A stretch of 64,000 bases of DNA, from assembly GCF_004010195.1 (NCBI RefSeq), contig NC_057716.1, positions 82,794,987 through 82,858,986 of the forward strand, written 5' to 3'. This DNA comes from Chiloscyllium plagiosum. Its lineage: Eukaryota. Both the position numbers and the translations under genes were made by a program. Position 1 is the first letter of the stretch. The number at the start of each line of letters is the position of its first letter. A model generated the notes under the pieces. The model saw nothing but the letters and a program-made list of their open reading frames with translations, was not told the DNA's origin and ran no database searches. Positions 128 to 62,248 of this stretch are shown one piece after another.

Positions 128-247
128 AAGGGCTCATGCCCGAAATGTCGATTCTTCTGCTTCTTGGATGCTGCCTGACCTGCTGCGCTTTTCCAGCAAC
201 ACATTTTCAGCTCTGATCTCCAGCATTTGCAGTCCTCACTTTCTCCC
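128..247 (+). mobile_element. PLE family A pLTR end (hammerhead stem II/GAAA plus tail), 5'-truncated at the CR1 tail
   Basis: AGGGCTCATGCCCGAAATGTCGATTC...GCAGTCCTCACTTTCTCC matches the 3' end of the PLE at 47421-47637. Confidence 0.8.
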
Positions 248-2219
248 AGAAGATTAAATAGCAAAAGGCTTATTAAGCAAGGCCAAATTCAAATCAACAA
301 TTGTAATTAATAATTTTTCAATGAATGTTTAATAATTAATACTTGAAGGCTCTTTTTTGGACTCCCCAATTCTTTGGTTTTTCTCCTTAAAATCTACCTC
401 TTTGTTCAATTTTTTTGGGAATGTATCCCACTGTCTCCTTACTTTGGTCCATTCTTAATATCAGTCTGATTGCAGTCTGGTAGAATGCTTTGAAACACCC
501 AAAATATAAGCACATTGTTGATGTTTAACAATGCATCAATATATGCAGAACTTGTAACATGGAAACAGGCCATTCTGCCTGATCATATTATAATCCATGT
601 TACTGTCCAAGCAAACGTACAATTGTAATCACAACTGCTCAACCATTTCTATAGATTTTTAACGCTTTATCCTTTCACCCAATTGTTGAATCGACTCTTG
701 AATTGACATAGTCGCTGGAACTAAATTTCACAGCTTCCAGACAATGGGAATTTTGACTACTTCCAACCTTCGGCCAGCCCACAGTTTAAAAATGGGCATT
801 GATGGAACACAAAGCAAAGGGAGACAAATGCATTCTAATGGCAACCAACAGTGTTTTTGCTGCATCTATTTGCTCATCGATTTTATACTGAGGCCCTAAA
901 GCCTAAGTCAGGTCCTTCATTTCCATCTTCATGTGAACATTTGGAGGTTACCTGCTTCAACTATGGCAAAAGACAAACTTGCAGAGGATTTCAGAGGCAA
1001 GAGATTGCAAACCAAGGTCGAACCCTCTCATTTTACTTTTTCATCAAAGAAGCAGATAAACAAGTTTGAATTCCTCCCACATAGACTGGTGACACTTTCT
1101 ATTAAATGATACACATATCCCGATTCAAAGTCTTTAACTTCATTGTTCGTTGTTCATTTTTCCTTCACTATAATTATCAATTTTAACACAAGAGCTGTAC
1201 TGCTCTTTGCAATCTGTGTCAGAGTGATAAGATAGGGAAGTGGGTACAAGGAGAAGGTGAAATCAGCAAGAGACAACTTTACAAAATGTCGCCTGCCTCG
1301 TAGTAGTATCTATACTCAGCATGCTGCTGTCAAGACAGTGACAGGTCTCTTGACCAGGATATCAGGTGATATATGAAGGCATCAGGAAGAGGGAATGTTT
1401 TGAGAAAAGAAACAAGCTGTTAAAGCTTAAAGATAAAAGGAAGACAAAATCAGATGCAGTTTAAATTTCTTAGAGTGTTTGTTTTGTGACAGTCAACCCG
1501 AACTGTAATGTAGTTGTTATTTTGCTTGCTTAGCGGTAGTGAAATTTGTAGAATCCTGAAGTTCTCAGTGAGTGGTTATTTTCCCAAGTTGTTTTTATCA
1601 CTAGTTGCTTCCTTTGAGTCTGGTAAGCTAGACAGAGAGAGAAAGAGAACAAGCCTTCAAGGTTATGCTATTATATATCGTTGCTCCCCCAATCTTTCTA
1701 CGCTGCCAAGTGAGCTTCTGAAAAATGGTCCATTAGTATATTATTGAGACCAGGCCCATCCCAAGCTGAGCACTTCCCAGGCAATATTTTGTCTCCCAAT
1801 TTGCAAATTATGCAAGTGTGTATTGAACAGGAGTTGTGAAGTTCTTGATGTGGAATTAGTTGTGTGGTTTCCCTGCCTTGGACTGAAATGATAAATTAGT
1901 GCAGCCGATTTAATATATTCCACATAGACATTTTGGGCTTGCCTCAATCTGTGATCATTTTAGATCCGTATTTAACTTCTTTAAAAATTGCTTTGGTTCA
2001 TGATGTTCTCAAGTACAAAAATCAGAAGGTGAAAGTTGAATATCAGTAATCCAGGTTCATCAATATTATAACAAAAAGACAACCTATCTCTACGTCAATA
2101 AAATTGTCTGGGTCCCTAACCAGCCTCAGGCCATCTACTGACAGGACCCACATTCATGGCTTGAAGTGCTCCCAGATTTTACCCACTGTGGATTTCTGTT
2201 CATGAAAAGCAGGCTTTGA

Positions 2220-2460
2220 CAGACACCTCCAAACCTGTAACTTCTACCACCTAGAAGAATAATCCCAACTGTGGCTAGGAATACCTCCACCCACACTTCC
2301 CTTCCAAGCCACACAGCATCCTGATAGCTTCACTGTTACTGGGCTAAAATCCTGGAACTCCCTCCCTCACAGCACTATGGCCACAGAACAAGAATTGTAG
2401 TGCGTCAGGAAGACAACTCAGCACCTTGTCAAGGGCAGTTAATGCCAGCAAAGTCCATAT
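2220..2460 (+). mobile_element. Old CR1/L2-type LINE 3' end
   Basis: AAAATCCTGGAACTCCCT...AAGGGCA motifs shared with 12180-12330 and 13565-14075. Confidence 0.6.
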
Positions 2461-2483
2461 CAGTCTCAAATTGATATTCAACC

Positions 2484-2710
2484 TGAAATAACTCTACAGA
2501 GACCAATATCCAATCACCAAGTCACCCTTCATTTACAGTCCTTGACACTGATCCAGCTCTCTCAAAGCCAGATGTCAGAATGAACAGAACCAAAGACACT
2601 CTTGTATATCTCAGTCAGCCAGGGGTCACGGATCGGACCAGATTAACAGCCCAGTCATGGAATTCATATTCTATGATGTCCACCTGGCTGACCTTATTAG
2701 AATCACAACA
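2484..2710 (-). mobile_element. Probable solo LTR
   Basis: Starts TG, ends CA; flanked by CAACC (2479-2483) and CAATC (2711-2715), a 5-bp TSD with one mismatch. Confidence 0.55.
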
Positions 2711-3769: not shown

Positions 3770-4310
3770 ATGAACAAAAACAGAAAATTTGAAAATATGC
3801 AGCAAGTCAGGCAATGTCTGAAGAGACAGAAACAGAGTTAATGGTTTATATTTCTGACTTTTCATCAGAACTGGGAAGTGAAAACAGGGACGAAAGGAAA
3901 AAGAACAGAAAGAAAGTTTTGTGTTTGGATGGATTGCAATAGAGATTAAATGATAAAGGGCTTGTGGAGCAAGGTCGAAAGGGAATGGTGATGAGACAAA
4001 AACAAACGATGTGCTTCCAGGAAGGTTTTGAACACTGCCATCCACATTCAAAAACAGTAAAAATCCAGTAAAGCCAAAACATAGGGGGAAGTAAAGGAAA
4101 ATTAAGGCAGAGTTTGCAATTTGAAATTACTAAAGTTAATATTGAATCCAGAAGGCTGTCAGTGTTTAATCAAAAGATGATGTGTTTCTTTGAGCATTTG
4201 TTGAGTTTCCCTGGTACAATGCAGGAGCTTGACGACAGAGGGGTCAGAGTGGAAATAAAGTGGAGCATTAAAACGGCAGGCAACAGACAGCTAGGGGTCA
4301 TGTTTATATA
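3770..4310 (-). mobile_element. Old PLE family C 3' portion (GIY-YIG C-terminus plus pLTR)
   Basis: 3775-3870 resembles family C pLTR (cf. 59430-59570) with a decayed CTGATGA core; 4130-4310 resembles the PLE C-terminus (EQHLIF-like, cf. 47120-47190). Confidence 0.6.
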
Positions 4311-4890
4311 TTGAAAGGGGGAGGATTCTTGTTCACTGGACTGATTCCTGGGATGAAAATGTGTTGCTGGAAAAGCGTAGCAGGTCAGGCAGCATCCAGG
4401 GAACAGGAGAATCAACGTTTCGGGCATAAGCCCTTCTTCAGGAATTCCTGGGATGGCAGTGCTGATGTAGGAAGAGAGACTGGATCAGTTAAGGTTATGT
4501 TCACCGGAGTTTAGATGAATGATGGAGGATCTTATAGAAAATGATACAGTTCTAACAGGACAAGACAGGTAAATAGAAAGGGTGTTCCTGATGACTAAAT
4601 TACAAGACCAGGGGTCACAGTCTAAGGATTCGTGGTAAGCTGTTTAGGACTGAGAGTAAGAGAAATTTCTTCACCAAGGTGAGCCAATGAAAATCTTTGC
4701 CACAGAAAGCAATAGAGTCCAAACATTGTATGTTTTCTAGCAGGCATTAGGTCTAGTCCTTAAGGATAAAGGGACCAAAGTATTGGTGGAAAGTGGGAGC
4801 AGACTGAGTTGGGTGATCTACCATTGAAAGGTGGACGTGGCTAAAAGGGCCAAATGGCCTATGCATGCTCTTGCATTCTCTGTTTCTCTA
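4311..4890 (+). mobile_element. Degraded CR1 LINE 3' portion, interrupted by a PLE insertion
   Basis: FTGLIPGM (cf. RFTRLIPGM), RGHSLRI-like motif and GGCCAAATGGCCT 3'UTR motif. Confidence 0.7.
4356..4443 (-). mobile_element. PLE family A mini-insertion with intact hammerhead core
   Basis: 12-bp TSD ATTCCTGGGATG at 4344-4355 and 4444-4455; minus strand reads CTGAAGA-A-GGGC-TTAT-GCCC-GAAACGTT. Confidence 0.85.
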
Positions 4891-13560: not shown

Positions 13561-13688
13561 TTCCTTCCAGGATATAACAACCACAAATATTCATTCATTC
13601 CTTCCAACACTGACACTTAATAGCAGCAAGAAGTACCTTCTAAAAGATTCACTGCTGAAACTCACAAATTACAGCACTTTCCAAACTC

Positions 13689-13804
13689 ATAGTTAGAAAT
13701 CATGCAACACCAGGTTATAGTCCAATAGGTTTAATTGGAAGCACTAGCTTGCTAAGCGCTGCTCCTTCATCAGGTGGTTGTGGAATACACAGTTGTAAGA
13801 CTCG
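13689..13804 (-). mobile_element. PLE family B mini-insertion
   Basis: 10-bp TSD TTCCAAACTC at 13679-13688 and 13805-13814; minus strand has CACCTGATGAAGGAGCAGCGCTT. Confidence 0.85.
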
Positions 13805-14234: not shown

Positions 14235-14502
14235 AGCGAAGTTTGAGAAGATTTGTAGCTCAGGTTGAGGTTCTAGATGTAGGCTTGTTTGAAGGTTGTA
14301 CCTCAACCTGAGCTACAAATCTTCTCAAACCTCGCTAATACCCATGGGCGCAATATGCTAAACTGGCCTGAAAATGGGAAATGAATACCATCCGAAAGAG
14401 TGCCACCCACGTACAGCTGTACTTCCTGCACGAATACCTAAGAAAACAGGTACTACCTAATGAAAATTAACCTTCCAGCTCAGCGAGCAAACCTACATCG
14501 AG
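14235..14502. mobile_element. PLE family D rearranged insertion (inverted tail, tail running into ORF N-terminus, pLTR end)
   Basis: 12-bp TSD TTTCCATATATT at 14223-14234 and 14503-14514; hairpin 14234-14337; 14460-14500 matches 41055-41095. Confidence 0.8.
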
Positions 14503-14515: not shown

Positions 14516-15190
14516 GTTAAAAATCACTCCTTCACTGTTGCACACATACTCTATCAAACACTCACACACACACGCTCTCTCCGTCTCTCCTACTCTCCCA
14601 CACACACAATCTCACTCTCTCTCTCTTTCTTACTCTCTCCACCCCCCTACACACATAAGTCTCAGGGTTGAATTTGCATTTGCAGATTTATTTTGCAGAT
14701 ACATTCTATTTTGTTCAAAAAACATACAATCTTCAGGCAGTCAGTCCATGTGACATTTTATAAATCCCTAATTTGGAAATAAAACCAGTCTGACTCGAGT
14801 TTGGAATACAGATAGACACTAACCTCATACTTTTAATGCATTGTCTGAGTTGAGATGTCACTTTTTGTTTATAGCACCTTAAGTTATCTCGGGAATGTGA
14901 CTTGAAAGAAGTCCTGGATTTATATATTAATGAATCAAAAGCTGTGAACCAATTTAAATGATTAAAGACTTAACAGAAATCTTGGTTTGTTCAATACATT
15001 GCATCAATTGTATGACACTTTGATCTTTTACTATAAATTCTGTGTCCTATGATCCTGCCCCTATTAGCTACCTGATGAATGAGCAGTGTTCTGAAAGCTT
15101 ATAATACTAAATAAACCTGTTGGACTATAATCTAGTGTTTCGTGATTTTTAACTTTGCCCAACCAGTCCACCCCGGTGGCACCTCCACAT
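14516..15190 (+). mobile_element. PLE family B 3' region/pLTR with short inverted 5' end
   Basis: 9-bp TSD CATATATTC at 14507-14515 and 15191-15199; starts with inverted GTTAAAAATCAC; decayed hammerhead CTGATGA...GAAAGCTT at 15072-15100. Confidence 0.8.
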
Positions 15191-15350
15191 CATATATTCC
15201 TTAGTAAGGGCTTTCATATTCTGAATAAAGCACTAACTTAATGGATTGGAAGCTTGCAATTTAACTTCAGAAAATTAGTTATAAGTGTGTCTTTGCCAGA
15301 ACATATAACATATATGTTGTTGTACTGAGGTTTAAGGGTGTGAAAACATT

Positions 15351-18367: not shown

Positions 18368-18571
18368 TACAAAGTTAAAAATCACACAACACCAGGTTAC
18401 AGTCCAACAGGTTTAACTGGAAGCACCAGCTTTCGGAGCGCTGCTCCTTCATTAGGTAGTTATGGAGTTACTCCGAAAGCTAGTGCTTCCAATTAAACCT
18501 GTTGCACTATAACCTGGTAATGTGTGATTTTTAACTTTGTACACCCCAGTCCAACACCGGCATCTCCAAAT
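18368..18571. mobile_element. PLE family B head-to-head palindromic insertion
   Basis: 13-bp TSD CAACATTTCTGTG at 18355-18367 and 18572-18584; arms about 18368-18438 and 18471-18541; right arm carries an extra ~30-nt tail. Confidence 0.9.
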
Positions 18572-18830: not shown

Positions 18831-19083
18831 CCTGTCTATTGTCCTTCCTACCTATCCGCTCCACCCTCCACTCCGACCGATCACCATCATCCACCTTCAT
18901 TTACCTATCACACACTAAGTTACCTTCTCCCAGCCCCACACCCCTCACATTTATGTCTCAGCCCCCTTGCCCGCCCCCACCTACATTGCTGATGAAGAAG
19001 TTATGCACGAAACGTCAACTCTCCTGCTCCTTGTTTGTTGCCTGACCAGTTGTGCTTTTCCAGCGCCACACTTCTACACTCCT
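18831..19083 (+). mobile_element. PLE family A pLTR, inserted in a minus-strand LINE 3' end
   Basis: CCTTGAGA duplicated on both flanks; C-rich pLTR like 47250-47510; CTGATGA...CGAAACGTC with broken stem II. Confidence 0.8.
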
Positions 19084-22000
19084 CCTTGAGAAGGTAGTGT
19101 TGAGCTACCTTGAAATATTGTAGTCCATTTGCTGTAGGTATACCAATAATGCCTTTGGAGAGGTTTTTGCAGGATTTCAACGCTGTGACATTGCAGGAAT
19201 GACAACATATTTACTTTGCTGGGGTTCCACAGACTTATTTGACAATAACTCTCAGAATTCTAAACTTCTTAGCATTCAAAATCTTCATTTTCATTCATCA
19301 TTGACAGCCTTATCCCGCACCTTCTCTTCCCAAAGCTTATGCTCCAAAAAAATTAAAATTGTACGGAAAAGAAGGACTTGCCCTCATGATCATAGTATGC
19401 TTGTGCATGGTGCAGTTGAACCTGATAACTTCATTCAGTCCTTTGCTGATATTTATTATGCACTCACTTCAGAAGAAAGGGGAAGAGGCAAAAATTGCAT
19501 GAGAAAATGGGTGACAAATGTTAGACCCAATCTTTGTTCCCAGGTTTAGGGCACGAAGATGGGAAATTGCCTAGCTCCACAAACACAATCTGATGGAAAA
19601 CAAAATGTCCTGGACAGTCAAATTTACATTCTGGAGTGACAAGGTTCTTTGGGAGGTGTATTAAGTGACCCTGAAGTGACAGTAAGGGTTGCCAGCTGTG
19701 GAAGCAAACTGGACGCAGGACTGTCTCTATACATCAGCATTATAGGGCAGTTTATTGAAAATGCAATAACAGCAAAGGTACCATTTCAACCACTACTCCT
19801 CAGTTACTTTCCAACTATACATACTTCCAATGCCCTTTCTGTGTTAATCCTGTGCAACATTATAGATTCTATGCCACCAAATGCCCTTCTACTTATCCCT
19901 AGGTGCCCTAATATCCCCTATTCCACTCTGTCTACCCCACAGCCCTTCATTTCATCTATTTCAGCCAATGGCCTGTACCCACCACCATGGCCTTTGTAGC
20001 CCCTCAGCCAACTTAGTACCAACTATTGGCAACCGTTGCTCCCCCCCTTCCACCCCTGCCCCCATCCTCCAATAACCACCACTCTTTTTTCCCTTCTCTC
20101 CTCTGTCCTTAATTCCAGCTCATCTTGCATCCATCTTGGAAAGTGCTCAGGAGCCCCGCTGACAGAGTAACATGTTCACGTGTGATGCCACCAGTTAAAA
20201 ATATACTTTCACTCATAAAAAAATAAATAAATTGAAATTCCATCAACTAATCTATTATGAAAATTAGCCTTTGTACTGACAGTTATTTAACAACTTAGTT
20301 TTGTTTTAGTAGCATAATAATTTTGTATGGGTTTTTGCACTCTTTCAGTACATCCAGGTCTTCTGTTGCACTCCAGTTGGTATTAGACACCAATTCCCCT
20401 TCCAAAAGGATACCTGATCTCCAAGGGTGACCAGCAACACACCTAAGGTGTCCTGGGAATATATTCAGAGAGGCACCTCACCTCTCTAAAAGACTACCTT
20501 TGCTCTTTAAGAAAATTCACTAAAATAGATCTACTCTGATCTGCTGTACATACTCTGTGTTATAGACAATGAGGATGCTAAAACCTGGTTGAAATTGAAA
20601 TATTTCTGCGACCTGTGCATGCATAAAGCCCAGGTCTCCAAGAAACTGCCTGCATGAAAATCAGACATGATGAAAACAAAGATTTCTGGAGGAAAAAACT
20701 ATAGTTATGAAAAACTCAGAGAAATCTTCATTGAACAGAGCTTTACTCCTGAATAAGTGTGCGACAATGCCAACAGAATGAGACCTAGGTCAGCAGGTTG
20801 GTCAGATATCAAATCAAATTCAATGTACCAACAGATCAATGAGTTATCCACTTAAATAGTACTACTAAATGTGAGGTTACACACAAAGACAAGCACACAG
20901 AATACAAAATAACTGTAGTCATCATAAAAGCTATCCTCACTCAAAGGAGAGAGCAACCTTCAGAAACCTATTTTTGAACTGAGTCAATATTTGAAATTCT
21001 TCAGTCATAAAATATAAATCCTTAACAGGTATCATAGCAGCTCAGTCAAATGAAACTCCATCCAAAACTCTTCTACAAATGTGTCCAAGCATTGATTTTT
21101 AAGTCACAAAATGACTTCTCAGCCTTGACTGAGATGCTAGGGGAGATGATGAGCAGAAGGCAGGTGCTCTTTACAGAAAAGGAGATAGCATGAGTCATGC
21201 AAATCATAATTGCATGCTGTTTTGCAGTTCAGTAATAAAGTGGATTGGAAGACGCTAGGAACTATGCCACTTGCTCATTTTTCTGGTGTGTAACACAGGG
21301 AGACTGACAGTAACAAATTACTGCTAACAATTTTATCTAACAAAGCATCTTAAGATGATTTACAATAGTCTCAATACTGGAACATGAACAAAAATAGAGG
21401 TTAAGGAAGGTGACAAAAGACATAGTCAAAGAGTCTAGATTAGAGTGGTGCTGGAAAAGCACAGCAGGAGATCTGTTTTGAGGAGGTTTTGGATGGTAAT
21501 GAGAGATATAACAAGGTGGAGGGTTTACAAAAAAGCTCCAGAGTGGAGGGAGTGATAGGTGGATTTTGTAGTTTGGTAGTTTGGAAGAAAAGAGATGTCT
21601 TATGTGTAGTGGACCATAATTGTCAGAGGAAAGAAAGAAGGGTGAACTTTATATGTAATACACACACACACACAATTATAAATATGTATGTGTGTTGCTG
21701 TAGAAGATGTGAATGTTGGAATTTCATGAAGTGCTCAAGACTTTTTCTAAGGGTTCATATACTTGTGAGTAAATTTCCTAATGATAAATCCATCCTAGCC
21801 CAACAATTTTAATGAAGATATTTACATATTCATTTAAATTAAATCTAAAAATTTCAAAGGCTATATATTTTGTTTTACATGATACATAAGGATAAATGTC
21901 CCACCATCACTGTAGAACACCATACCAAAACTACTGATGATAACCCGATGACTAGTATTGACAGCAGGAAGGTTGCAGGAATATTGCTTTAATTAAGTTC

Positions 22001-22484: not shown

Positions 22485-22585
22485 GAGGAGAAAGTGAGGA
22501 CTGGGCTTATGCTGGAAACGTCGATTCTCCTGTTCCTTGGATGCTGCCTGACCTGCTGCGCTTTTCCAGCAACACATTTTCAGCT
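22485..22585. mobile_element. PLE family A mini-insertion (short inverted tail plus forward arm)
   Basis: 14-bp TSD CTGATGATGCTGAA at 22471-22484 and 22586-22599. Confidence 0.85.
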
Positions 22586-22611
22586 CTGATGATGCTGAAT
22601 CAAAATAACTT

Positions 22612-22689
22612 TAAAAATCACACAACACCAGGTTATAGTTCAACAGGTTTATTTGGAAGCAATAGATTTTGGAGCACTGCTCCTTCATC
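22612..22689 (-). mobile_element. PLE family B mini-insertion
   Basis: TAAAAATCACACAACACCAGGTTATAG...CTCCTTCATCA; AAATAACTT duplicated at 22603-22611 and 22690-22698. Confidence 0.8.
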
Positions 22690-40081: not shown

Positions 40082-41096
40082 TTGAGTTTTGAGAAGATTT
40101 ATAGCTCAGGTTGAGGTACTGGATGTAGGTTTGCTCGCTAAGCTGGAAGGTTCCTTTTCAGACATTTCATCACCATTCTAGGTATCATCAGGGAGCATCC
40201 AGACAAAGCACTGCTGATGGTTCCTACTTTCTATTTATATGTTTGGGTTTCTTTGGGTTGGTGATGTCATTTCCTATTCTTTTTCTCTGTGTGTGGTAAA
40301 TGGGATCTGAGTCAATGAGTTAGTTGATAAAGTTCCGGCTGGAATGCCGTGCTTCTAGGATTTCTTGTGTATGTCTCTGTTTGGCTTGTCCTAGGATGGA
40401 TGTGTTGCCCCAGTTGAAATGGTGTCCATCTTTATCTTTATGTAAGGATACTAGTGAGAGAGGGTCATGTTGTTTTGTGGATAGCTGATGACATTAGTTT
40501 TGCTTGTGTCTGTATAGGGTCTTTAAAATTCATTAGTTGCTGTTTTAGTGTGTTGGTGCGCTACCATAATGCCAAGTGGTCCGAGTCAGACACCTTAGCA
40601 TTATGGTAGCCCACAAACCCACCAACATACTAAAAGAGCAGCTAATGAACTCGAAAGACCCTATACAGACAACAAGCAAAACTACTGTCATTTAAAATAC
40701 CATGCAAGAACTGTAACAAACACTATATTAGACAAACAAGCAGAAAACTAGCCACCAGGATACATGAACACCAACTAGCCACTGGGACAATACATCCATC
40801 CTATGTCAAGCCAAACAGAGACACACATGAGAGTTCCTAGAAGCATGGCATTCCAACTGAAACTCTATCGACAAACACACTGACTTGGACCCCATTTATC
40901 ACCCCTGAGAAAAAGAACAGGAAATGACATCACCACAGAAAATGACACTACCAACCCAAAGAACCCCAAACATATAAATAGAAAGCAGGAACCATCAGCA
41001 ATGCTTCGTCCAGAGGGTCACTTACGTTATTACCTAGTATGGTGACGAAACGTCTGAAAATGAAACTTCCAGTTCAGCGAGCAAACCTACATCCAG
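40082..41096. mobile_element. PLE family D ~1 kb head-to-head palindromic insertion (GIY-YIG region plus pLTR in both arms)
   Basis: 13-bp TSD AGTCTCAGTTCCA at 40069-40081 and 41097-41109; plus arm reads KIPCKNCNKHYIRQTSRKLATRIHEHQLA; GGTGACGAAACGTCTG hammerhead half at 41041-41056. Confidence 0.9.
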
Positions 41097-43604: not shown

Positions 43605-43809
43605 TGAATCAGAAAGTGTGGCCTGGAAAAAGCACAGCAGGCCAAGCAGCATCTGAAGAGCAGGAGAGTCAATATTTCGGGCATCAAGATGAAGGGCTTA
43701 TGCCCGAAAAATCAACTCTCCTGCTCCTTGGATGCTACCTGACCTGCTGCGCTTTTTCCAGGCCACACTTTGGCTCTGACTCTCCAACATCTACAGTCAT
43801 CACTTTCTC
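43605..43809. mobile_element. PLE family A head-to-head palindrome
   Basis: 9-bp TSD CTCAGTGAT at 43596-43604 and 43810-43818; arms about 43613-43684 and 43700-43771; right-hand tail. Confidence 0.85.
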
Positions 43810-44727: not shown

Positions 44728-45367
44728 CTGTTGCCCCTCAGAGGTACTAAGTGCAGCAACACAAGCTGCTCCCTTGCAGGTAAGCACACCTTAAGGTGAA
44801 TGATGTGCTGGCCAAGGTGAAGTGATTTCAAAAGCTGTCAAGTAATAAAAACACTGTCTCAGAGAGGTACTTCGAAGAGTTGCCTCTCAATTAGCCTGGC
44901 TGAATTCCTTCAGTGTAACTGATCAAAGACTTCCGAGCTTGTCAGTTTCATTGAAGAAGGTCTTTCTGCTGTATTCTGCCCTCAGTAAGCCTGCAAGTTG
45001 CTGATGAATCTGGACTCAACTCTAACAACTGAGTTTAAAATAATATTACTGTGCTATTTAAATACCTTAATTGCTTGCCCAAGAGTTAGAATCCTACTTG
45101 CTTTTATTCCCACCCTGATGAATGGCATGATTTTGGGATCAAGGATATAACTCTCCATGTGCATCCAAACAATTCTGCCCTTGGTTTAAGTAAAACTTTA
45201 TTTAACCACAATCAAGTGTTACGGCACAGAATACAAATCAGAAATTTTTAAGACATGACATGATGACATCCAATGTAAAAGTTTCAGCAACAACTTCAGT
45301 CGCACTCTGTCGACTGGAGTCAGTGTTGTCAGTTGGTTAGGTGTGAATATAGTGTACAGCAAGATCA

Positions 45368-47639
45368 GAGAGTGGAAAAGCACAGCACATCAGGCAGCAT
45401 CTGAGGAGCAGGAGAATCAATGTTTCGGGCATAAGCCCTTCATCAGGAATGAGGTTTGTGGGCCAGGTGGCTGAGAGATAAATGGGAGGGGTGTGGGCAG
45501 GGGAGAAAGTAGCCAAAAATGTGATAGATGNNNNNNAAGAGGGTGGTGCCGAGTTGGAGGCTTGGACAGGGATAAGGTGGGGGGAGGGGAATTGAGGAAA
45601 CTGATGTAATCCACATTGATCCCATATGGTTACAGGGTCCCAAGGCGGAAGATGAGGCATTCTATCTCCAGGCATCGGGTAGTTAGGAGTTGGTGATGGA
45701 GCAGGCCCAGGACCTGCAAGTCTTTGGTGGAGTGTGAGGGTGAGTTAAAGTGTTCAGCCACAGAGAGGTTGAGTTGGTTGGTGTGGGTGTCAGACATGTC
45801 CAGGTGAATTTAAGGTTGGGGTGGAAGATGCCAGTGAATTTGATGAACTGTTCAACTTTCTAATGGAAGCACGAAGTATCGTTGATACAGTTATCGATGT
45901 AGTGGGGGAAAGATGGAGAATGGTCCTGGTGTAGCTGCAGAAGACAGACTATTCAACGTACCCGATGAAGAGGCAGGCAAGACTGGGGCCGATGTGGGTG
46001 CCCATAGCCATGGAGGAAGTGGGAGGATTGGAAGGAGAAGTTGTTAAGGGTGAGGACCAGTTCAGCTAGGCGGATGAGGGGTTCAGTGGAAGGGTACTGG
46101 TTGGGTCAGCGTGAGAGAAAGAAATGGAAGGATTTGCAGGCTTTCATCATAGCGGATGAATGTGTACAGAAACTGGATATCCATGGTGAAGATAAGGCAT
46201 TGGAGGCTGGGAAAACAAAAGTTGGAGGAGATGATGGGTGTGGGTGATGTCCTGAACGTGGATGGGGAGTTCTCAGACTAAAGGGGACAGTATCATACCA
46301 CAGCTACCTGGACTACACCTCCTCCCACCCTTCCTCCAACCACACAAGATCAATGTGGATTTCACCAGTTTCCACATTTCCCCTATAAAAATGCTATGCC
46401 TTTTTCCCAATTCTTCCTCCTCCATTGCATCTGCTCCCAGGAGGACCAATTCCATCATAGAACATCCCAGATGACCTTCTTTTTCAAAGACTGCAATTTC
46501 CTCTCCCACATGGACAAGATGCCCTTCAGTGCACCTCCTCCACTTTCCGCACCCCGTCCTTGAACCCCACTCCTTCAATTGCAACAATGTCAGAACCGCC
46601 CTGGTCCTCACCTTCCACCCTACCAACCTCCAGATACATCGCATCATCTTTGCACTTTCCCCACCTACAAACAAACCCCACCACTCAGGATATATTTTGC
46701 TCTCTATCCCTATCTGCATTTTGGAGAGACCATTCCCTCCGTGACTCCCTTGTCAGATCCATGCCCCCCACCAGCCTGCACCCCACTCCTGGCACCTTCT
46801 CCTGCCAACGAAGGAGTGCAAAACCTGCGTCAACACCACTCCCCTCACCTCCATCCAAGGCCCCAAAGGAACCTTCCACATCTGACAGAAATGTACCTGT
46901 ACGTGCACATTCATCAGCTGTTTTATCCGTTGCACCTGATGTGGCCTCCTCTACATTGGGGAGACAGGACGCCAATTGCACATGGTTTCAGAGAACATCT
47001 CTTGGACACCCACACCAACCAACCCCACTGCCCATGGCTAAACACTTTAACACCCCCTCCCACTCTGCCAAGGACATGCAGGTCATGGGCCTCCTCCATC
47101 ACCAATCTCGAACCACCTGACGCCTAGAGGAAGAATGCTTCATCTTCCACCTTGGCACCCTGCAACCACATGGGATCAATGTGGATTTCATAAGTTTCCT
47201 CATTTCCCCTCCTCCCGCCTTATCCTAGTCCCAAACCTCCAACTCGGCACTGCCCTCTTGACCTGTCCTTCTTCCTTCCCACCTATCCACTCCACCCTCC
47301 TCGCCGATCAATCGCCTTTCTCCCCCACCTTCATCTATCTATTGCATTCTCAGCTACATTCCTCCCAGTCCCATCCTCCTCCCATTTATCTCTCAGCCCC
47401 CCCGGCCCACAAGCCTCATTCCTGATGAAGGGCTTATGCCCGAAGCATCGACTCTCTGCTCCTTGGATGCTGCCTGACCTGTTGTGCTTTTCCAGCACCA
47501 CACTGTCTACTCTGATCTCCAGCATCTACAGCCGAAGCATCGACTCTCTGCTCCTTGGATGCTGCCTGACCTGTTGTGCTTTTCCAGCACCACACTCTCT
47601 ACTCTGATCTCCAGCAGCTACAGTCCTCATTTTCTCCTT
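45368..47639. mobile_element. PLE family A ~2.3 kb mosaic insertion (inverted pLTR and RT core; forward thumb, GIY-YIG and pLTR)
   Basis: 9-bp TSD GCAAGATCA at 45359-45367 and 47640-47648; minus strand AMGTHIGPSLACLFIGYVE, HYIDN and FHPNLKFTW; plus strand HSYLDYTSSHP and CGLLYIGET; CTGATGAAGGGCTTATGCCCGAA on both arms. Confidence 0.9.
45531..45536. other. Assembly gap (6 N)
   Basis: N run. Confidence 1.
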
Positions 47640-48119
47640 GCAAGATCAATAAGCATAGTGGCCCACATTATGTATAAAAGTCTGTGTTATCATGGCCTTG
47701 GAAATACTTAGTGTTGTAAATCAGCTTTGAGTATCTGATGCAACATTATCCAACTATCTGTGGGATGGCATATAGTAAAACATAAATGGCATAAAGTGAA
47801 TATACTATATTTTAGTGGAGAAAAAAGTACAATGTAGTTAAACATAATTATGCTCAGTATTCCAAAGAAGAATCATTGGTCTCAAACATTATTTCTTTCT
47901 CCACAGTTGTTGTTAGACCTGCTGAGTTTCTCTAACATCTTCTGTTTTTATTTCAGAACCCTTTTTTCCTTGTATCTTTTACTTTGATTGCAGTAAGAAT
48001 AGAAATTGAACAGCTGGGTGAATAAATGAATTTGGGGTATTTTGGAGGGAAATATAAAACTTTCTGCATGAGGCAGAATAGTGTGATTGTGGTATAATTC
48101 ATCGTGTCAGGGACGTATA

Positions 48120-54104: not shown

Positions 54105-54187
54105 ACTCGAGCTGAAACATTAACTCTGATTTATCTCCACAGATGCTGCCAGACGTGCTGAGCTTTTCCAGCAATTTCTGTTTTTGT
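54105..54187 (+). mobile_element. PLE family C pLTR end
   Basis: GAAACATTAACTCTGATTTATCTCCACAGATGCTGCCAGAC...TTTCTGTTTTTG. Confidence 0.75.
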
Positions 54188-56830
54188 CATTGTTTTGCTA
54201 TCCTAATTTTATAGAGTAAAATTTGTTTTGTTTGTTCAGATCATGGAATCCTGTGGCTTTTACCTTTAATAACACCCAGGATCTTGATTTGCAGCGAGGA
54301 AAAAGGTACTGGTCCATAGCAAGTTATAATATAAATTTGGCAGTGTCAACATGGATCATAACAAGATGTGTATTCGTCCATTTACTGGATTAATTGTGCC
54401 TTGCGGGATGAGCATATGAATACTTAAACACCTTGGTTAAGATATTGGATAGAGAATTTTCATCAAGTCACATTAGCTTTCATTGTCATGTTATATTTCT
54501 AAATCTTACTAACAATTGGTGCCAGTCTGCTTTAAATTACTATGGTGACAGCATGGCATGGACTGGTGTCGCCTGGATTCTGGAAGCAGCATGGTGTAGC
54601 CCAGAGTGGGAATGTAGCAGTGGAGAAGGAAATGTTAGACTTTCTAAGTTATCTTTCTTTATTTTTTATGTTATTTTAAGTTAATTAGAATGGCGCCTAT
54701 GTATGGTGCCAGTACATATTTTCCACTGTATTTTCTATTGAATGCGTGTGACAATAAATGATTCGATTCAATTCAAGTGGCCTCCTCCCCATTCTGATGT
54801 TTTGCAAAGACTTCCTATATCCATATGGATTCCTATCTGGTCTTTCCCAGAGCCTCCCAACCTTCCAAAATGATATCTGCTAGAAGGATCTCCACCTTGA
54901 ATCTATACTTCAAATTTCATGGAGGCTTCAGATGGCTGTTTCAATCTCTGCCTCAGTCATCTATCCCCCCATTTTGATCTTTATCAGAGACCCCCCCCTC
55001 TCTTTCCTTGTCTGTCAGAGACAAAACCCTCACTTATCTTGGTCAGAAGCACAACTCTACTGACTGCCAAGTGTTATTCACACAGCTCGCCACCTCTTGC
55101 TGCCAAATGTTTACTCCTGTTCACTGGTTAGGACATCATCTGTGCTTGTGTCAGGCAAGGTTATGTAAAAATTACTGAAATTACTTCCTACTCTTAAAAC
55201 TGGAAGATATTCTGGTCTCCAACTCCATTTCTGGTCTCTCATTCATCTAAACTCTGACCCAATCTCTCTTTAGATGACAAATTGCCATCCTAGACGTTAG
55301 CCTGGTTAACTTGCACTGTACACCTCTCTAACAAGAACATCTATTCTTAATAAAAAAAGGAATACTGCACACTGTACTCCAGGTATGTTCTCACCAAGGC
55401 CTTGTATAGCTGCAGGTAATACTTCCTTACTCCTGTAGTCAAACCCTCTTGCAAAAGAGGCCAATGCACCATTTGCTTTCCTAACTGCTTTCAGTGACTG
55501 GTGTATGATGTCACCCAGGTCCCGTTCTGTGTCAACCTTCCTCAAGCTATCACCGACAAATAATATTTTGTGATTCTGTTTTTCCAACTAAAAAGAGGAA
55601 ACTTTCATACTTTTGTTACACTGCATCTGCCATGCATTTACCAACTCAATCAACTTATAAGACCATAGGAGCAGAAGTTAGGCTATTCAGCCCATCGAGT
55701 TTGCTGTGCTATTCAGTCATGGCTGATAGGTTTCTCAACCCCATTCTCCTGCTTGTCTCCATAAACCTTGATCCCCTTTATAATCAAGAAGCTATCTATC
55801 TCTGTCTTAATTATACACAATGACCTGGCCTTTACAGCCTTCTGCAGCAGTGAATTCCATAGATTAGCCACTCTCTGGCTGAAGACATTTCTTCTTATCG
55901 CTGTTATAAAATGTCTTCCCTTTACTCTAAGGATGTGCCCTCAAGTCCTTGTCTGTCCTACCAATGGAAACATCTTCCCAACTTCTACTCTGTCCAGGCC
56001 ATTCAGTATTCTGTAAGTTTCAATCAGAACACCCCACATCCTTCAAACCTCCATCGAGTATAGGCCCAGAATCCTCAAATATTCTTCATATGTTAAGCTG
56101 TTCTTTCCTGGGACCATTCTCGTGAATCTCCTCTGAACATGCTCCAGGGCCTCTTGAGATATGGGCCGAAAACTGCACACAGTACTCTAAATATGGCCAG
56201 ACCAGAGCCTTATAGAGCATCTGAAATACATCACTGTTTTTATTTTCAAGTCATCTCAAAATAAATGCTATCATTGCATTTGCCTTTCTTACTACTCACT
56301 CAAAATACACATTTACCTTGAGAAAATCCTAGATTAGAACTCACAAGTCTCTTTGCACTTCAGACTTCTGAATTTTCTCCCCATTTAAAAAAAATGTCCA
56401 TGCCTCTATTCTTCCTATCAATGTGCATGACCTCACACTTTCCCACATTGTACTCCATCTGCCACTTTTTTGCCCATTTTCCTAACCTGTCCAAATCCTT
56501 CTGCAGCCTCCCTGCTTCCTCAATGTGACCTGTCTCTCTACCTATTTTTGAATCATCTGCAAATGTAGCCAGAATCCAACAATTCCTTCATCCAAATCAT
56601 TAATGTATAAAGTGAAAAGTTGTGGTTCCAACACTTAGCCTTGCAGTACACCACTTGTCACCAGCTACAACCCTGAGAAGGACCCATTTATCCCCACTCC
56701 CTGCTTTCTGCCAGACAGTAAAGCTTCTATCCATGCTAGCAACTTGCCTCTAACACAGTAGCATGTTGTGCAGCACCTTGTGAAGGGCCTTCATGAAGTC
56801 CAGATAGATAACAGCCATTGATTCTCTTTG

Positions 56831-56920
56831 TTGAAAAATGTGGTGCTGGAAAAACACAGCAGGCCAGGCAGCATCCGAGGAGCAGGAGAATCGACGTTTC
56901 GGGCATAAGCCCTTCTTCAG
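56831..56920 (-). mobile_element. PLE family A mini-insertion
   Basis: 11-bp TSD GATTCTCTTTG at 56820-56830 and 56921-56931; nearly the same extent as 4356-4443. Confidence 0.9.
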
Positions 56921-56927
56921 GATTCTC
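56886..56927 (-). ncRNA. Minimal type-I hammerhead ribozyme motif, intact
   Basis: Minus strand GAGAAUC-CUGAAGA-A-GGGC-UUAU-GCCC-GAAAC-GUC-GAUUCUC: 7-bp stem I, full core, 4-bp stem II, palindromic ACGU stem III, GUC cleavage triplet. Transcription and activity are not shown. Confidence 0.7.
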
Positions 56928-57646: not shown

Positions 57647-58704
57647 TGTCTGTCTTTGTTCATTTTTTACTACTAAAAATAGACAAGCACTTTTTTACCA
57701 AAGCTGATCAAAAACAGTCCACTGCACAACATTACCAGATAGATGATCAAGCCTTTGATTTTCCCTCCTTGTGCAACCCCCTGCCCCTGTACCCATAACT
57801 ATTATGGTGTCACAGGCATAATTCAGAATTCAGCTTCCAAAAGTTTGCAAGTGAAATCACATCCATTGCATTGTTTTCTAGCGCAGTATATGGTTCTTTT
57901 TGCCATTCTGATAGAAATCTATTTTCCTAAAACAACAGATAATGTTCAAATCTTTGTCGTTTGAACTCTACCTCTGTTGTTCTTTTATAATCTTTACCAA
58001 CTAACCAAAATGGGCAGATTTTAATGTTTATTGAGACCTCACCAGCGCTGAATGAGTGTCAATAAATGAATGACAATTAACTTTCCTTTTGTGGTGGCTT
58101 TTCCACTTGTACTGGACATAATCTTATATCCACGTGTCAGAAGGATTTACTGAAAGCAAACTACCGTGGAATTAAAATTATTCAAATGAGTATTTATTTT
58201 GCAGTGTCTACCCTTCTTCTCATTCTTTAAATCTTATATGTTTAAGTCTAGCTATCAAGCTCCAATATTCCCATTTTATTCAAAGAAAGTAAAAAAATAA
58301 AGCTGTGATATCTGTTTTCCAAGACTAGCTATAAGGATGAAATCACTGAAATTCACAAACAAGGAGCTGTCTCATTTTGAATTGCTTTATGAAAAATGAT
58401 TTCTCTTTCACTTACTTTAATCTACATGGAACTCTGTCAGTGATACTCTGTGCAACATAAAATATATGACGGCCATATACTGATTCTGACTACGAATTGA
58501 TGAGCATTAGATTGTCATTTGTGTTATATTAGGAAAAATTCTCACTTTGGAGACTTTATTTCTTGCAGTGAACTTAAAACATTCCTTTCCCCTTCTGCCC
58601 CAAATTCCCACTTTGACCCAAATTCCCAGTTATTCACTCTGACTCAGTCTCACTTCAGCATCGTCTCCAGCAGTCCACTTTGAATAAACTTTCCTAACGA
58701 GTCA

Positions 58705-58918
58705 AAAACAGAAATTACTGGTGAAACTCAGCAGGCCTGGCAACACCTATGGGAAGAAAACAGAGTTAAATTTCAAGCCTGGTGACTCTTTCAGAATCTG
58801 TTAAAACATGAACTCTGCTTTCTTTACACAAATGCTGCCAGACCTGCTGAGAAACACCAGCAATTTCTGTTTTTGTTTCAGAACTCCAGCATCCACAGTT
58901 CTTTGTTTCATTTTAGCT
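58705..58918. mobile_element. PLE family C head-to-head insertion, diverged
   Basis: AAAAACAGAAATT.CTGG...CTCAGCAGG and its reverse complement; imperfect TSD CTAACGAGTCA / CTGATGAGTCA. Confidence 0.75.
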
Positions 58919-59431: not shown

Positions 59432-59669
59432 GAAAACTGAAAGAACTGCAAATGCTGTAAATCAGAAACAAAAACAGAAATTGCTGGAAAAACTCAGCCG
59501 GTCCAGCAGCATCTGTGGAGAGAAATCAGACTTAATGTTTTGGGTTGAGTTATCCTTCCTCAGAACAGTTTTGAGGAAGGATCATTCAACTTTAAACATT
59601 AACTCTATTTCTGTCCACAGATGCTCCTAGACCTGCTGAGCTTTTTCTGGCAATTTCTGTTTTTGTAGC
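59432..59669. mobile_element. PLE family C head-to-head insertion
   Basis: 9-bp TSD ATAACTAAT at 59423-59431 and 59670-59678; centre CCTTCCTCAGAAC-A-GTTTTGAGGAAGG; left arm carries the extra tail. Confidence 0.85.
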
Positions 59670-60289
59670 ATAACTAATAAGATGGTTCTTAAAACCGAGC
59701 AAGTAGAGAGACAAGTAATGAGACTGATTACATTGAGAAAGATAACCCAGTACTGGAAAGTTTCTTCTGTGCATTATAAATGGCAAAATTATAAACCCTT
59801 CTTGATAAATGGGTTTATGATTGTGATGCACAAGGAAATCGCAGCTGCCAAATTTATCACAGCTGTTGTGCTTTCATCACCAGCTTGACCAAATATCTAT
59901 GAGTGCATAAAATCGCATACTGTCACGATTAGACTTTGGACTGACTGGCCTATTCTCACCTCTTGAGATGGGTATAACATCAACTGCTTTTGGTAAACCT
60001 CCTTCAACACAGACATTAAAGATAAGTTGAAGTTTTGACCAAATATTCAAACAGCACTAAATTTACCATAATTTCTCATTAAAATAAATATACTGACAAT
60101 TTGTCAATCCTTATCTGAATGTTCTTATCCATTTTCCATTGTTAAACTTCTTACATTTATAATACCAAAAGCAAGCTGTTTTTACATTAACTCCAAGTAA
60201 ACCTGCTGATTATTGATAGAACCTAATAGGCATGCAATGCATTTCCAAAAGTTTTGTTTTCCTTCAGTTTGAATATCATTGAATGATAT

Positions 60290-60830
60290 AGCAGAGGAGG
60301 CCATTCAGACTACTATCCCAGTATTTGCTCTTTGAAAAGCTATTCAATTATTCCTACTCTGTTCAGTTTCTCTTAATCCTGAAAATATATATTTTCCACG
60401 TATTTACATAATTCCCCCTTTGAAAGTCCCAGTTGAATCTGCTTTCAGCACATATATATGGGCAGCGCACACTAGTTTGAAGTGCGTAAAAGAAAATTGT
60501 TATCCTTCCTCTAGTTCTTTTGTCAATTATCATAAACCTGTGCACTTTGGTCACTCACTCCAGTTGAACCAGTTTGTCCCTATTGATCAAAACCCCTCAA
60601 TTTTGAATGAAGCTATTACATTTCTCTTTAAATTTCTCTACCCTGAGGAGAACAATTGTGGCTTCTTTAGGCTTTCAACACAACTGAAGTCTTTCATCCC
60701 CAGTATTATTCAGGTAAATCTCCCCTGAATCCGCTCTAAGACCTTAACCTTTTGAAGCATTTATACACCTTCTTCCTAATCATGGTGCCCACAGGTTGCA
60801 CACATTAGTCTAACAGAAGACAAATCAGTG
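60290..60830 (-). mobile_element. Very old CR1 LINE 3' portion
   Basis: GAGGAGGCCATTCAG tail motif; TCATCCCCAGTATTATTCAGGTAAATCT (minus RFT*IILGMK, cf. RFTRMIPGM). Confidence 0.55.
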
Positions 60831-61987
60831 ATCTCTATCCTTAAGAGTTTCTATCATTAACTGTTGGATGGGTTTGTGACAAATCATGTAATGATTTATA
60901 AGATACTTGCACTTTTCTGGTTTTACAATCTAAAAGTGGGCAATATTTAGAGAGTTAGAAAATACAAAATCCATGAAGAAACCTAAAGCTGGTGATCCCA
61001 CTGACAGAATTAGAAGCTATGGATTCTGCAAAGATGATACTGTAGTGTTTATTATTAAGACCACAATATTGCAGATTAATTGCAGAAAAGCCTATTACTT
61101 TACTTCACAATTTTTAATTATTTTCGAGAGTTCCTGTACTCAGCAGGGTGAAGTTCAATGCTGTAAAATGGAATACTTTCTGTTCCGTGGGAAACCAAAT
61201 TACTGGAAGCAAGCAGAAAAGAAAAAAAAACAGCCTTACATAAATGCCAATAATCTAAGTTTGAAGGAAAATATTACAGAAACTAACTCACCATACTGAA
61301 AAGAAGCACCTGAGTGGTGAATCTACAGAGCTATGCAAGATTATTTTAAAGTGGAAAGTTTCCGTGAAATGTTGGGCAATGTTACAATCCATTGAGGGGC
61401 ATGGGACAAACATGGAAAAGTCAGATTTTAGCATCAAGTTTAAACAGCGAGTTCTAAACCACACTAATCAATGGCAATAACCTTATTTGCATCTCATTAT
61501 TAGCTAAATTTACCATATTTCTATACGGCTACAATGCAGCCAGACAGAGTCAGCTCTCGACATAAGTCAGAGCAATTACCTGGTGGCAGCAGCAGCTCAC
61601 CACTCAGTTCTCTGGGTCTTCAACACAATCTTCACCATAATTTCCCTGCATGTTCTGTGGACTTCATCCTCTTCCCTCCTTTGTCCACACACTGACAAAT
61701 CGACAGGCTCACACCAATGCCATGGCCAAAACACACCCCAATTCAGCCTTTCAGGATTTCACTTTGGGGCTCAGGGACACATAACCTGTATGCTTCCCTG
61801 AGGTCCCTTTGCATACAGGGCTACACATGCAGCTGCACAAGATGCACCTTATGGCTCCTAGCTCACTTTCTTAGCACACATTAACTTTGCATTTATTGGA
61901 GGCTGCCAGACTCTGTCGCTTTCATTGTTTTCTAACACAGAGGTAGCTTGTCATTATTCAGAGAACTGAACAGTTTTGGAGTTGCCG

Positions 61988-62034
61988 GATGTCACTGGGC
62001 TACATCGATGTCACTGGGCTACATCAATGTCACT
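61988..62034. repeat. 19-bp tandem repeat (about 2.4 copies) overlapping a PLE TSD
   Basis: GATGTCACTGGGCTACATC twice, then AATGTCACT. Confidence 0.85.
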
Positions 62035-62248
62035 AGGCGAAAGTGAGAACTGCAGATCAGAGTCAAGATTAGAGTGGTGCTGGAAAAACACAGTAGGTCA
62101 GGCAGCATCCAACAAGCAGGAAAATTGACGGTTTGGGCAGGAGCTCTTCATCAGGATGCTGAAGGACTCCTGCTGAAATGTCGATTTTCCTGCTCCTTGG
62201 ATGCTGCCTGACCTGCTGTGCTTTTCTAGCACCACTCTAATCTTGACC
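62034..62248. mobile_element. PLE family A head-to-head palindrome
   Basis: 15-bp TSD CTACATCAATGTCAC at 62019-62033 and 62249-62263; ~80-bp arms; left arm carries the extra tail. Confidence 0.9.

Follow-up and report, generated by a model that had tools for sequence, protein, structure and literature searches.

The question that this locus raises is what its many short, partly inverted repeats are, and how they came to be inserted. The locus is a 64,000-nt stretch of Chiloscyllium plagiosum DNA, referred to as the window herein.

Element ends, ribozyme motifs and linked reading frames

A profile search identified 36 ends of Penelope-like elements (PLEs) in the window, grouped into ~27 insertion events. 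The profiles were built solely from sequence 3' of the predicted cut site and gave no match to the reversed window sequence; three further, weak end fragments lie beyond the 36. These figures largely bear out a sequence-only reading of this DNA that had counted about 25 insertions from at least four families (A-D), to which we add a fifth family, E. The features are as follows (window positions; inverted pairs without strand).

128..236, plus: family A end, 5'-truncated within stem II, tail present
3773..3847, minus: family C-type end, decayed (72% identity, weak)
4354..4445, minus: family A solo end, core and stem II intact; core start 4441, predicted cut after 4414
13688..13790, minus: family B end, GAAA box decayed
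14461..14499, plus: family D fragment, 3' of the ribozyme, without core
14949..15194, plus: family B end, preceded by native 3' UTR sequence
18368..18571: family B inverted pair, right-arm tail, 13-bp target duplication (18355, 18572)
18842..19081, plus: family A end with native upstream sequence
21445..21468, minus: family A fragment
22503..22590, plus: family A end, stem II truncation
22606..22690, minus: family B end
29757..29993: family B inverted pair, 10-bp target duplication; intact core at 29908 in the right arm
32524..32732: family B inverted pair, right-arm tail, 11-bp target duplication
33795..33944: family A inverted pair, left-arm tail, 14-bp target duplication; appears nested within a family C end (33950-33987)
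34286..34333, minus: family A fragment, 3' of the ribozyme
36768..36998: family E (U3-A8 core) inverted pair, right-arm tail, 13-bp target duplication; both cores decayed
37747..37866, plus: family C solo end, decayed core
40082..41096: family D (Poseidon type) long inverted pair, left-arm tail, 13-bp target duplication
43605..43809: family A inverted pair, right-arm tail, 9-bp target duplication
45362..45790, minus: family A end, core at 45446, GIY-YIG remnant upstream (45596-45790)
46815..47623, plus: family A element; linker/GIY-YIG remnant (46815-47256), then 3' UTR, ribozyme at ~47423 and tandem second end (47532-47623)
47891..47957, plus: family C end, decayed
54113..54193, plus: family C end, truncation within the ribozyme
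56832..56927, minus: family A solo end; intact core (56920), stem II, ACGUC site, 7-bp stem I
58703..58904: family C inverted pair, credible target duplication not found
59432..59669: family C inverted pair, left-arm tail, 9-bp target duplication
62034..62248: family A inverted pair, left-arm tail, 15-bp target duplication
63128..63628, plus: family A-type linker and GIY-YIG remnant, beyond the range of the sequence-only reading; search for a following ribozyme end negative

Decay has affected most copies in the window, and 7 of the 36 ends retain an intact CUGANGA...GAAA..UH core. Of the individual copies cited earlier, the family A motifs (minus strand, 4441 and 56920) match their description, and the cores of the B copy at 13745-13775 and the C copy at 37747 are broken. 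At E<=1, Rfam matched no hammerhead model in the window. The family consensuses drawn from these decayed copies were found letter for letter elsewhere in the genome, with 37,320 exact matches for A (27-mer), 2,430 for B, 139 for C and 441 for D, and none genome-wide for the backwards-read control motif of each of these four families. Using a structure descriptor, we found 54 intact minimal hammerheads in a 769-kb spaced genome sample versus 0 in the reversed sample. The resulting ~70 intact motifs per Mb correspond to roughly 250,000 genome-wide, provided that the sample is representative. At ~265 ends per Mb, ribozyme-bearing ends are among the commonest insertions, as had been proposed.

All 8 representative copies have the features that define a minimal type I hammerhead, namely the conserved core, G10.1-C11.1 in stem II, a palindromic stub as stem III and the UH site. 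In the same eight, and as the sequence-only reading had it, stem II is unlike between families yet forms 4-6 bp, and the tetramer of stem III is self-complementary (ACGT or AGCT). From family to family, base pairing persists in stems I and II and at the 15.2-16.2 and 3-8 (core) pairs. Compensatory changes, counted by eye on the eight rows, comprise stem I strands that differ yet pair (2-5 bp), CG/GC at 15.2-16.2, and C3-G8 to U3-A8. Family E has the core UUGACAA with the compensated U3-A8 pair and 1,248 genome matches; among the first 100 matches listed, 99 carry U3-A8 and none C3-G8. Judged from these patterns, the ribozyme appears to be under selection in active lineages. The description of the families as otherwise unalignable did not hold, since an alignable stretch of ~30-70 nt follows the ribozyme in A and C. 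Family E can also be aligned to both there, and has its downstream sequence, tail and inverted layout in common with C.

The PLE origin of families B and C had been set in advance as a refutation test, and both were found downstream of GIY-YIG sequence. Among the matches listed, 20 A, 17 B and 25 C ribozymes lie downstream of GIY-YIG motifs, a few of the B cases being chance neighbours and the C links being mostly one duplicated cluster with common 3' flanks plus one independent locus (L043). The ends follow GIY-YIG by 310-550 nt in A, 600-1,400 nt in B, about 390-520 nt in C and 300-380 nt in D. Family B has frames of 598 and 480 aa bearing both RT motifs and GIY-YIG, with a Pfam RVT_1 match in one (E 7e-6) and no RT match in the other. 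Pfam matches in the locus proteins (RVT_1, E 7e-6 and 3e-6; GIY-YIG, E 0.003) were all under gathering score, and Pfam missed two of the five locus proteins and the window's decayed GIY-YIG frames. For A and C we saw GIY-YIG and the linker, the RT core being unreadable in the loci fetched; for D, RT and GIY-YIG were found in separate loci, its native context being absent with the GIY-YIG regular expression and found with a wider one. No peptide was found upstream in the copies of family E examined. Direct 5' pseudo-LTRs (pLTRs) leading into an ORF, as in a partial tandem, were not found in the loci opened. Candidate full-length pairs chosen by spacing, including a family C pair in L121, proved to be independent insertions or local duplications, and a ribozyme upstream of a long frame in L242 has no tail and is not continuous with the ORF.

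The Neptune linker is defined as CX2-5CxxC between RT and endonuclease (PMC8557442). Cysteine linkers of this type occur in B (CHSRCCRTC), A (CHRRNCKTC) and, decayed, in C (CPCRRC); none was found in family D within 35 residues before GIY-YIG (L108, L111, L113). On this basis we assign A, B and C to the Neptune type and D to the Poseidon type. Linker absence apart, the Poseidon name of D follows a likeness of motifs.

Chance motifs, DNA-transposon MITEs or microRNA hairpins might be suspected from the many perfect-looking hairpins and from Rfam microRNA matches below gathering scores; a microRNA identity in the window was rejected, since these matches reflect inverted arms. However, the controls gave 0, one tail makes the arms asymmetric, junctions vary, duplications span 9-15 bp, and long copies continue into GIY-YIG and RT sequence. 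Such an origin is barely conceivable, and the links to PLE reading frames already refute it.

5' junctions and the copied RNA

The 5' starts of short copies form a wall that lies 4-9 nt ahead of the ribozyme core and ~30 nt past a TATA-like box. In a set of 131 family A copies selected on downstream sequence alone, -7..0 holds 45 of the starts and the 97 positions -109..-13 hold 6; starts at -7..0 account for 12/48 copies in B and 13/50 in C. A simulation of uniform truncation placed none of the longer copies into -7..+8 (0/111 in A, 0/65 in B, 0/75 in C). The junctions are spread rather than fixed to one base: those of A occupy -7 to +8, those of B -10 to +2. TATA-like boxes lie at -35/-37 (A), -38/-40 (B), -35 (C) and -47/-50 (D); the wall is at -9/-10 in B, and 6/65 copies of D begin at -18/-15. 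The flanks of 59 short solo copies have no common homology at the junction (one unrelated 16-nt match), and 11/59 have target duplications of at least 8 bp versus 2.5% in shuffled pairings. Run X21 contributes 234 RNA reads that join at -4 and whose loose ends are mixed. Read from the DNA junctions, transcription would start ~30 nt past the TATA-like box, before the core by 4-5 nt (A, C), ~9 nt (B) and ~15-18 nt (D).

A stall of reverse transcription or an RNA fold, namely hammerhead stem I, could also set the wall, and in A and C the wall (-4/-6) overlaps the 5' strand of stem I. However, stem I is just 3 bp in B and D, yet the wall stands at ~-9 in B with a small cluster at -18/-15 in D; stem I is 2 bp plus a mismatch in the commonest A subfamilies, and stalling is not expected to add a G. 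We regard a stall as very improbable and prefer a transcription start.

An extra G is frequent at the 5' wall of family A. Among the first 100 listed of the family A junctions at -4, a hand tally gave AG:AA at 33:7 and CG:CA at 5:3, against backgrounds of 0.42 and 0.13 for AG and CG (p 1e-7 and 1e-3). In five solo A copies with duplications of at least 10 bp, the G lay outside the duplication in two and inside, as microhomology, in three. The sites inspected individually were 20 AG/CG cases out of the 6,066, selected because they carry G. Support for the extra G is confined to family A, counts in B, C, D and E being too small. It is likely that this G is the RNA cap, copied. The sequence G-ATT could partly reflect target-site preference, and the anole enzyme is reported to favour ATT targets (PMC11167929).

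Family A junction patterns number 6,066 at -4 and 678 at the predicted cut site genome-wide; control junctions number 426 three bases past the cut site and 122 seven bases before it (~183 scaled). Cut-site junctions are therefore 1.6x and ~3.7x the neighbouring controls and ~nine times below the -4 count, ratios that are rough, as the counts come from different patterns without separate denominators. This distribution suggests that the RNAs copied into short insertions were mostly uncut by the ribozyme, and some cut RNA may have been copied. That the hammerhead cleaves in vivo, and that the 3' cleavage fragment is the template of an appreciable fraction of insertions, would fit the excess over both control positions and the 4/20 opened cut-site loci that consist of a solo copy flanked by host DNA, a partial duplication being present at one of them. 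We consider it doubtful, given that 14/20 of those loci are, by our own reading, fold-back junctions and 2 internal changes, that stem I and the ACGT palindrome give microhomology at exactly the cut site, and that the -4 count is so much higher. No read-end pile-up was listed, a weak test with a fragmented library, and the anole work likewise reports no RNA-seq ends at the cut site (PMC11167929).

The short units might instead be non-autonomous and SINE- or retrozyme-like, the short copy itself being transcribed and remobilised by Penelope protein, with the fixed start stemming from a few short masters. The very many near-identical short A copies (the 37,320 exact 27-mers) are compatible with this, pLTR-derived retrozymes have been proposed in vertebrates, one chondrichthyan included (bioRxiv 10.64898/2026.07.22.740005), and non-autonomous Chlamys elements exist (PMC8557442). 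Against it, short copies have no TATA-like box, their 5' flanks are mutually unrelated, the wall tracks the upstream box across families of different offsets, and copies are dispersed or inverted, with a single tandem second end in the window (47532). We judge it unlikely, and it is compatible with the capped-RNA route, since both would use the same enzyme and the same priming sites. We are largely confident in the reading of the repeats as pLTR ends of Neptune- and Poseidon-type PLEs, each with a minimal type I hammerhead motif, the short copies having probably arisen by run-off reverse transcription of the 90-130 bases at the start of a capped, uncut element RNA.

Tails, inverted pairs and insertion mechanism

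All four families (A-D) have two fixed 3' ends ~35-40 nt apart. A tail was found on exactly one arm in 115/131 inverted pairs, where ~64/131 would be expected (A 63/68, B 30/35, C 16/21, D 6/7), and 9/10 inverted pairs in the window have 9-15-bp target duplications around the whole structure. The optional 30-40-bp tail, the inverted 5'-truncated copies and the target duplications are all traits of EN+ PLEs.

Inverted junctions have been attributed to self-priming on an antisense template (PMC3846280). We infer instead priming of both target strands on sense RNA, because the one-tail rule and the cap-like G seen at inverted junctions fit this better than self-priming. The element protein would nick target DNA and prime at one of two internal RNA sites, and reverse transcription would run to the cap, in family A often copying it as the extra G. 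For the inverted pairs, it is rather probable that both target strands were primed, one per site, and the two cDNAs joined head to head. Predicted cleavage, as a dimer or with protein help, would probably occur at a step other than the making of short copies. Taken together, and with a slight lean in its favour, the insertions, in their hundreds of thousands, would amount to a fossil record of the Penelope cycle, in which a protein dimer primes both strands at one fixed internal site each on capped RNA, synthesis runs off at the cap with the hammerhead uncut, the cDNAs are joined head to head, and the ribozyme, with its vertebrate U3-A8 core, is selected for a different step, e.g. releasing or circularising full-length RNA.

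Significance and comparison with known systems

The role of PLE hammerheads has been stated to be unclear (PMC8557442). A density of ~265 ends per Mb provides base-level statistics on where copying starts and stops, directly comparable with the reconstituted anole enzyme. For annotation, ends of 90-250 bp belong under PLE ends, not under SINEs, MITEs or microRNA hairpins. We found no report of shark PLE hammerheads or of a cap-derived G in PLEs, though supplements might list shark motifs.

Minimal hammerheads in Penelope pLTRs, including those of fish Neptune, Poseidon and Xena, have already been described (PMC4209133). The ribozyme class is thus known and the motif alone is no discovery; what stands out is its scale in a shark-like genome together with the junction evidence. 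The described hammerheads resemble those found here in the CUGANGA core, the extra base before stem II, G10.1-C11.1 and the palindromic 15.2-16.2, and also in having several families per genome, mostly single truncated copies and opposite-strand pairs 100-700 bp apart (PMC4209133). No shark is named in the available text; in that set the U3-A8 variant is given for Schistosoma, whereas family E is vertebrate, and the counts of ~4,000 (coelacanth) and ~9,000 (Xenopus tropicalis), made with a different descriptor, compare with our genome-wide estimate (PMC4209133).

The Anolis carolinensis Poseidon element PAc (Frangieh et al. 2024, PMC11167929) is alike in that two internal RT start sites bound the tail, cutting and extension affect both strands, the enzyme uses mainly uncut RNA in vitro, and RNA ends are absent at the cut site. 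PAc is one element in vitro, whereas the record here is genomic, with the paired 3' ends in four families and the one-tail rule; the 5' wall at a likely capped start is undescribed in the PAc account as far as the text available to us extends (PMC11167929). EN+ PLEs share 5' truncation, a head-to-head inverted copy, a 30-40-bp tail that is often one-ended, TATA and Inr-like motifs in the pLTR, and target duplications (Craig et al. 2021, PMC8557442; Arkhipova et al. 2013, PMC3846280).

Non-LTR retrozymes are likewise non-coding and pLTR-derived with a type I hammerhead, and are reported in one chondrichthyan; in that species they form tandem ~360-bp units, whereas here the 90-250-bp ends are dispersed, solo or inverted (bioRxiv 10.64898/2026.07.22.740005). 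The window held no retrozyme-type tandem units each with a hammerhead, its one tandem second end having no core. Full-length LINE-1 insertions also show an extra G at the 5' junction, which has been interpreted as the mRNA cap, and LINE-1 inversions arise by second priming on the other target strand (PMC11702581). LINE-1 primes at the poly(A) tail, whereas here priming apparently occurs at two fixed positions within the RNA, close to its 5' end.

Abundance and fold of the ribozyme-bearing ends

The sequence-only reading, which had assigned the window's short repeats to hammerhead-bearing ends of Penelope-like elements (PLEs), made a real observation and identified it correctly. Its family A motifs are confirmed at 4441 and 56920 (minus strand), and the B, C and D motifs that it deduced from decayed window copies occur exactly elsewhere in the genome (2,430, 139 and 441 matches, respectively). 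The family A motif has 37,320 exact matches in the 3.56-Gb assembly, and backwards controls of the A, B, C and D motifs gave 0 genome matches each. A structure descriptor (core, stem II of at least 4 bp, GAAA, two bases, UH) matched 54 times in a 769 kb evenly spaced genome sample and 0 times in the same sample reversed. Searching 961 kb with profiles built from sequence lying 3' of the predicted cleavage site (cut site), at a threshold of 20 bits, yielded 143 matches for A, 52 for B, 51 for C (E, described below, included) and 9 for D, and 0 on reversed sequence. The density of these profile matches is ~265 ends per Mb; with the proviso that a sample taken entirely from the 25 largest contigs represents the whole genome, the total is near 0.9 million ends. 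The window holds 36 ends from 27 events, with the core intact in 7, and an Rfam search of it returned no hammerhead match. The four families had also been called otherwise unalignable, which did not hold: beyond the ribozyme, on its downstream side, A can be aligned with C, and at least some of the families are therefore related.

Other repeats in the window include a broken reverse transcriptase (RT) of another LINE type (9134-10450, minus strand; Pfam RVT_1, E 9e-17) and many sequences that we take to be CR1-like LINE 3' ends and tRNA-SINE-like repeats (28561-28997, 30513-31093, 43860-44722, 50433-51696 and others).

Across eight representative copies, stem II is 4-6 bp long and differs in sequence between copies, and stem I measures 2-5 bp. 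Either ACGT or AGCT forms the stem III stub, and position H is filled by C, A or U. A fifth family, E, was found at 36768-36998 with the core UUGACAA. Its pattern, allowing C or U at position 3 and G or A at position 8, has 1,248 genome matches; of the 100 that head the listing, 99 have U3-A8, one has C3-A8 and none has C3-G8. A compensated U3-A8 core pair has been reported in Schistosoma (PMC4209133). The family E core, as predicted from sequence, is good evidence for selection on the catalytic fold in an active lineage. This fixed pair escapes CUGANGA descriptors, and stem I reaches 5 bp. A family A subfamily with a CTGT loop (locus L141 and others) has a full 4-bp stem I, while the commonest A subfamilies have 2 bp and a mismatch. 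At 56832-56927 (minus strand), the heptamer preceding the core is the reverse complement of the heptamer that follows the cut site; the resulting 7-bp stem I exceeds family A's native 2-4 bp. This family A end, a predicted ribozyme, is the best single candidate for a cleavage assay. Some 20 nt past the cut site, family C has a run of pyrimidines that closes with CAG and is followed by ATG, resembling a splice acceptor or, alternatively, a short upstream frame.

Linkage to PLE coding sequence

Loci were collected by searching the genome with GIY-YIG peptides, and their downstream ends were then checked for a ribozyme. These ends bear the matching ribozyme of the same family, which bears out the PLE origin proposed for A-D. 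Family B loci carry frames of 598 and 480 residues that combine RT motifs with a cysteine linker and GIY-YIG. Family A has the linker and GIY-YIG, with remnants in the window:

45596-45790, family A GIY-YIG remnant
46815-47256, family A linker/GIY-YIG remnant
63128-63628, family A linker/GIY-YIG remnant

The family C GIY-YIG is distinct, 42% identical to that of A, and ends 168 nt before the core; most C loci have a common 3' flank and were counted as a single duplicated cluster; L043 is an independent case. Family D has an RT and a GIY-YIG without the linker, GIY-YIG-like peptides lying upstream in 8 of 30 loci. Pfam scores for PLE domains were all below gathering thresholds. By the linker criterion of PMC8557442, the predicted proteins of A, B and C are of the Neptune type and those of D of the Poseidon type. 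No ORF link was found upstream of the family E copies examined. Loci L280-L309, many on contig C8, represent one old family C insertion amplified with its 3' flank in many copies; this large duplicated or satellite-like unit is concentrated on C8 and small contigs.

Termini, inverted pairs and the 5' wall

Each family has two 3' ends ~35-40 nt apart, the longer including an extra 3' stretch (tail); in family A, counted from the cut site, right-hand target duplications begin at +60-62 or +96-100. Among all loci examined, 115 of 131 inverted (head-to-head) pairs carry the tail on exactly one arm (A 63/68, B 30/35, C with E 16/21, D 6/7), where ~64 would be expected if the arms were independent; 14 others have no tail and 2 have two. 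The tail is present in 226/575 solo copies. Since duplications of 9-15 bp bound 9 of the 10 inverted pairs in the window, each pair is one insertion event. A family C end seems to have received a family A pair at 33795-33988; the 14-bp duplication of this pair is C-type sequence. In a family B pair, the left-arm tail (29757-29818) appears tandemly duplicated.

For 5' junctions, copies were chosen by downstream sequence only; 271 matches, window included, passed score, edge and N filters, and the counts cover the 237 copies outside the window. Of 131 family A copies, 45 start at -7..0 relative to the core, 25 at +1..+8, 6 in -109..-13 and 5 at +26..+30, the cut site, while 23 extend past -110. 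Starts at -7..0 account for 12/48 copies in B and 13/50 in C; the B wall, or junction pile-up, lies at -9/-10, and in D, where most copies are long, 6/65 start at -18/-15. Simulated uniform truncation gave no comparable pile-up. The flanks of 59 short solo copies are mutually unrelated, and 11 of the 59 have duplications of at least 8 bp, versus 2.5% in shuffled pairings.

Native upstream sequence contains TATA-like boxes at -35/-37 (A), -38/-40 (B), -35 (C) and -47/-50 (D), and the walls fall ~30 nt after them. The A and C walls fall on TCATTC or TCAGTT, which resemble the initiator consensus. TATA and Inr-like motifs have been noted in a pLTR (PMC3846280). Among raw RNA reads of one run (X21), 234 with mixed loose ends join at -4; they probably stem from host transcription across many insertions and confirm the DNA junction at -4 rather than a start site.

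Family A blocks preceded by two non-native bases were counted genome-wide by pattern matching, with no separate denominators; this gave 6,066 junctions at -4 and 678 at the cut site, against 426 three bases after the cut site and 122 (~183 scaled) seven bases before. By hand tally, AG:AA was 33:7 and CG:CA 5:3 among the first 100 listed at -4, GG (28) and GA (24) being excluded as confounded by inverted arms; AG:AA at the cut site was 34:30. Extra G in LINE-1 has been read as the mRNA cap (PMC11702581). Inspection of 20 of the AG/CG sites yielded 5 solo copies with duplications of at least 10 bp, the G being untemplated in 2 and within microhomology in 3; several inverted junctions carry a G not supplied by the arm, and an unselected local set has G at 15/39 non-native A junctions. 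Against reading this G as cap-derived, cases are too few in families other than A, and a target preference could add G-ATT. Manual reading of 20 cut-site loci found 14 fold-backs, 2 internal changes and 4 solo copies. Since stem I and the palindrome make microhomology available there, the modest excess at the cut site neither shows nor excludes cleavage.

A possible mechanism and relation to known elements

The analysis shows that the repeats derive from PLEs, have two alternative 3' ends and a wall on the 5' side, carry target duplications and a single tail per inverted pair, and keep a conserved fold. In the mechanism we propose, a capped RNA would be begun by the pLTR promoter just before the ribozyme, and the element protein would prime ~60 or 97 nt downstream of the cut site and run off at the cap. 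The resulting A units, ~93 or 129 nt, would hold the whole uncut motif and lack the promoter. Priming of both strands, one per site, would give head-to-head pairs. To make long copies, either priming within the 3' pLTR or a template jump would be required. The conservation of the putative ribozyme suggests a function in the active lineage, probably exerted on full-length RNA, either by a dimer or with the aid of protein.

Among the papers listed by our literature searches, none concerned shark PLE hammerheads or cap-derived G in PLEs. A whale shark preprint notes PLE expansion (10.1101/443036), and retrozymes are recorded in one chondrichthyan (bioRxiv 10.64898/2026.07.22.740005). This ribozyme class is already known from fish PLEs, where it comprises many families and occurs in single truncated copies as well as opposite-strand pairs (PMC4209133), and PLE tails and inverted ends have also been described (PMC8557442, PMC3846280); the value of the present repeats thus rests on scale and junction evidence. 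Their two 3' ends match the tail and two internal RT starts of an anole element (PMC11167929).
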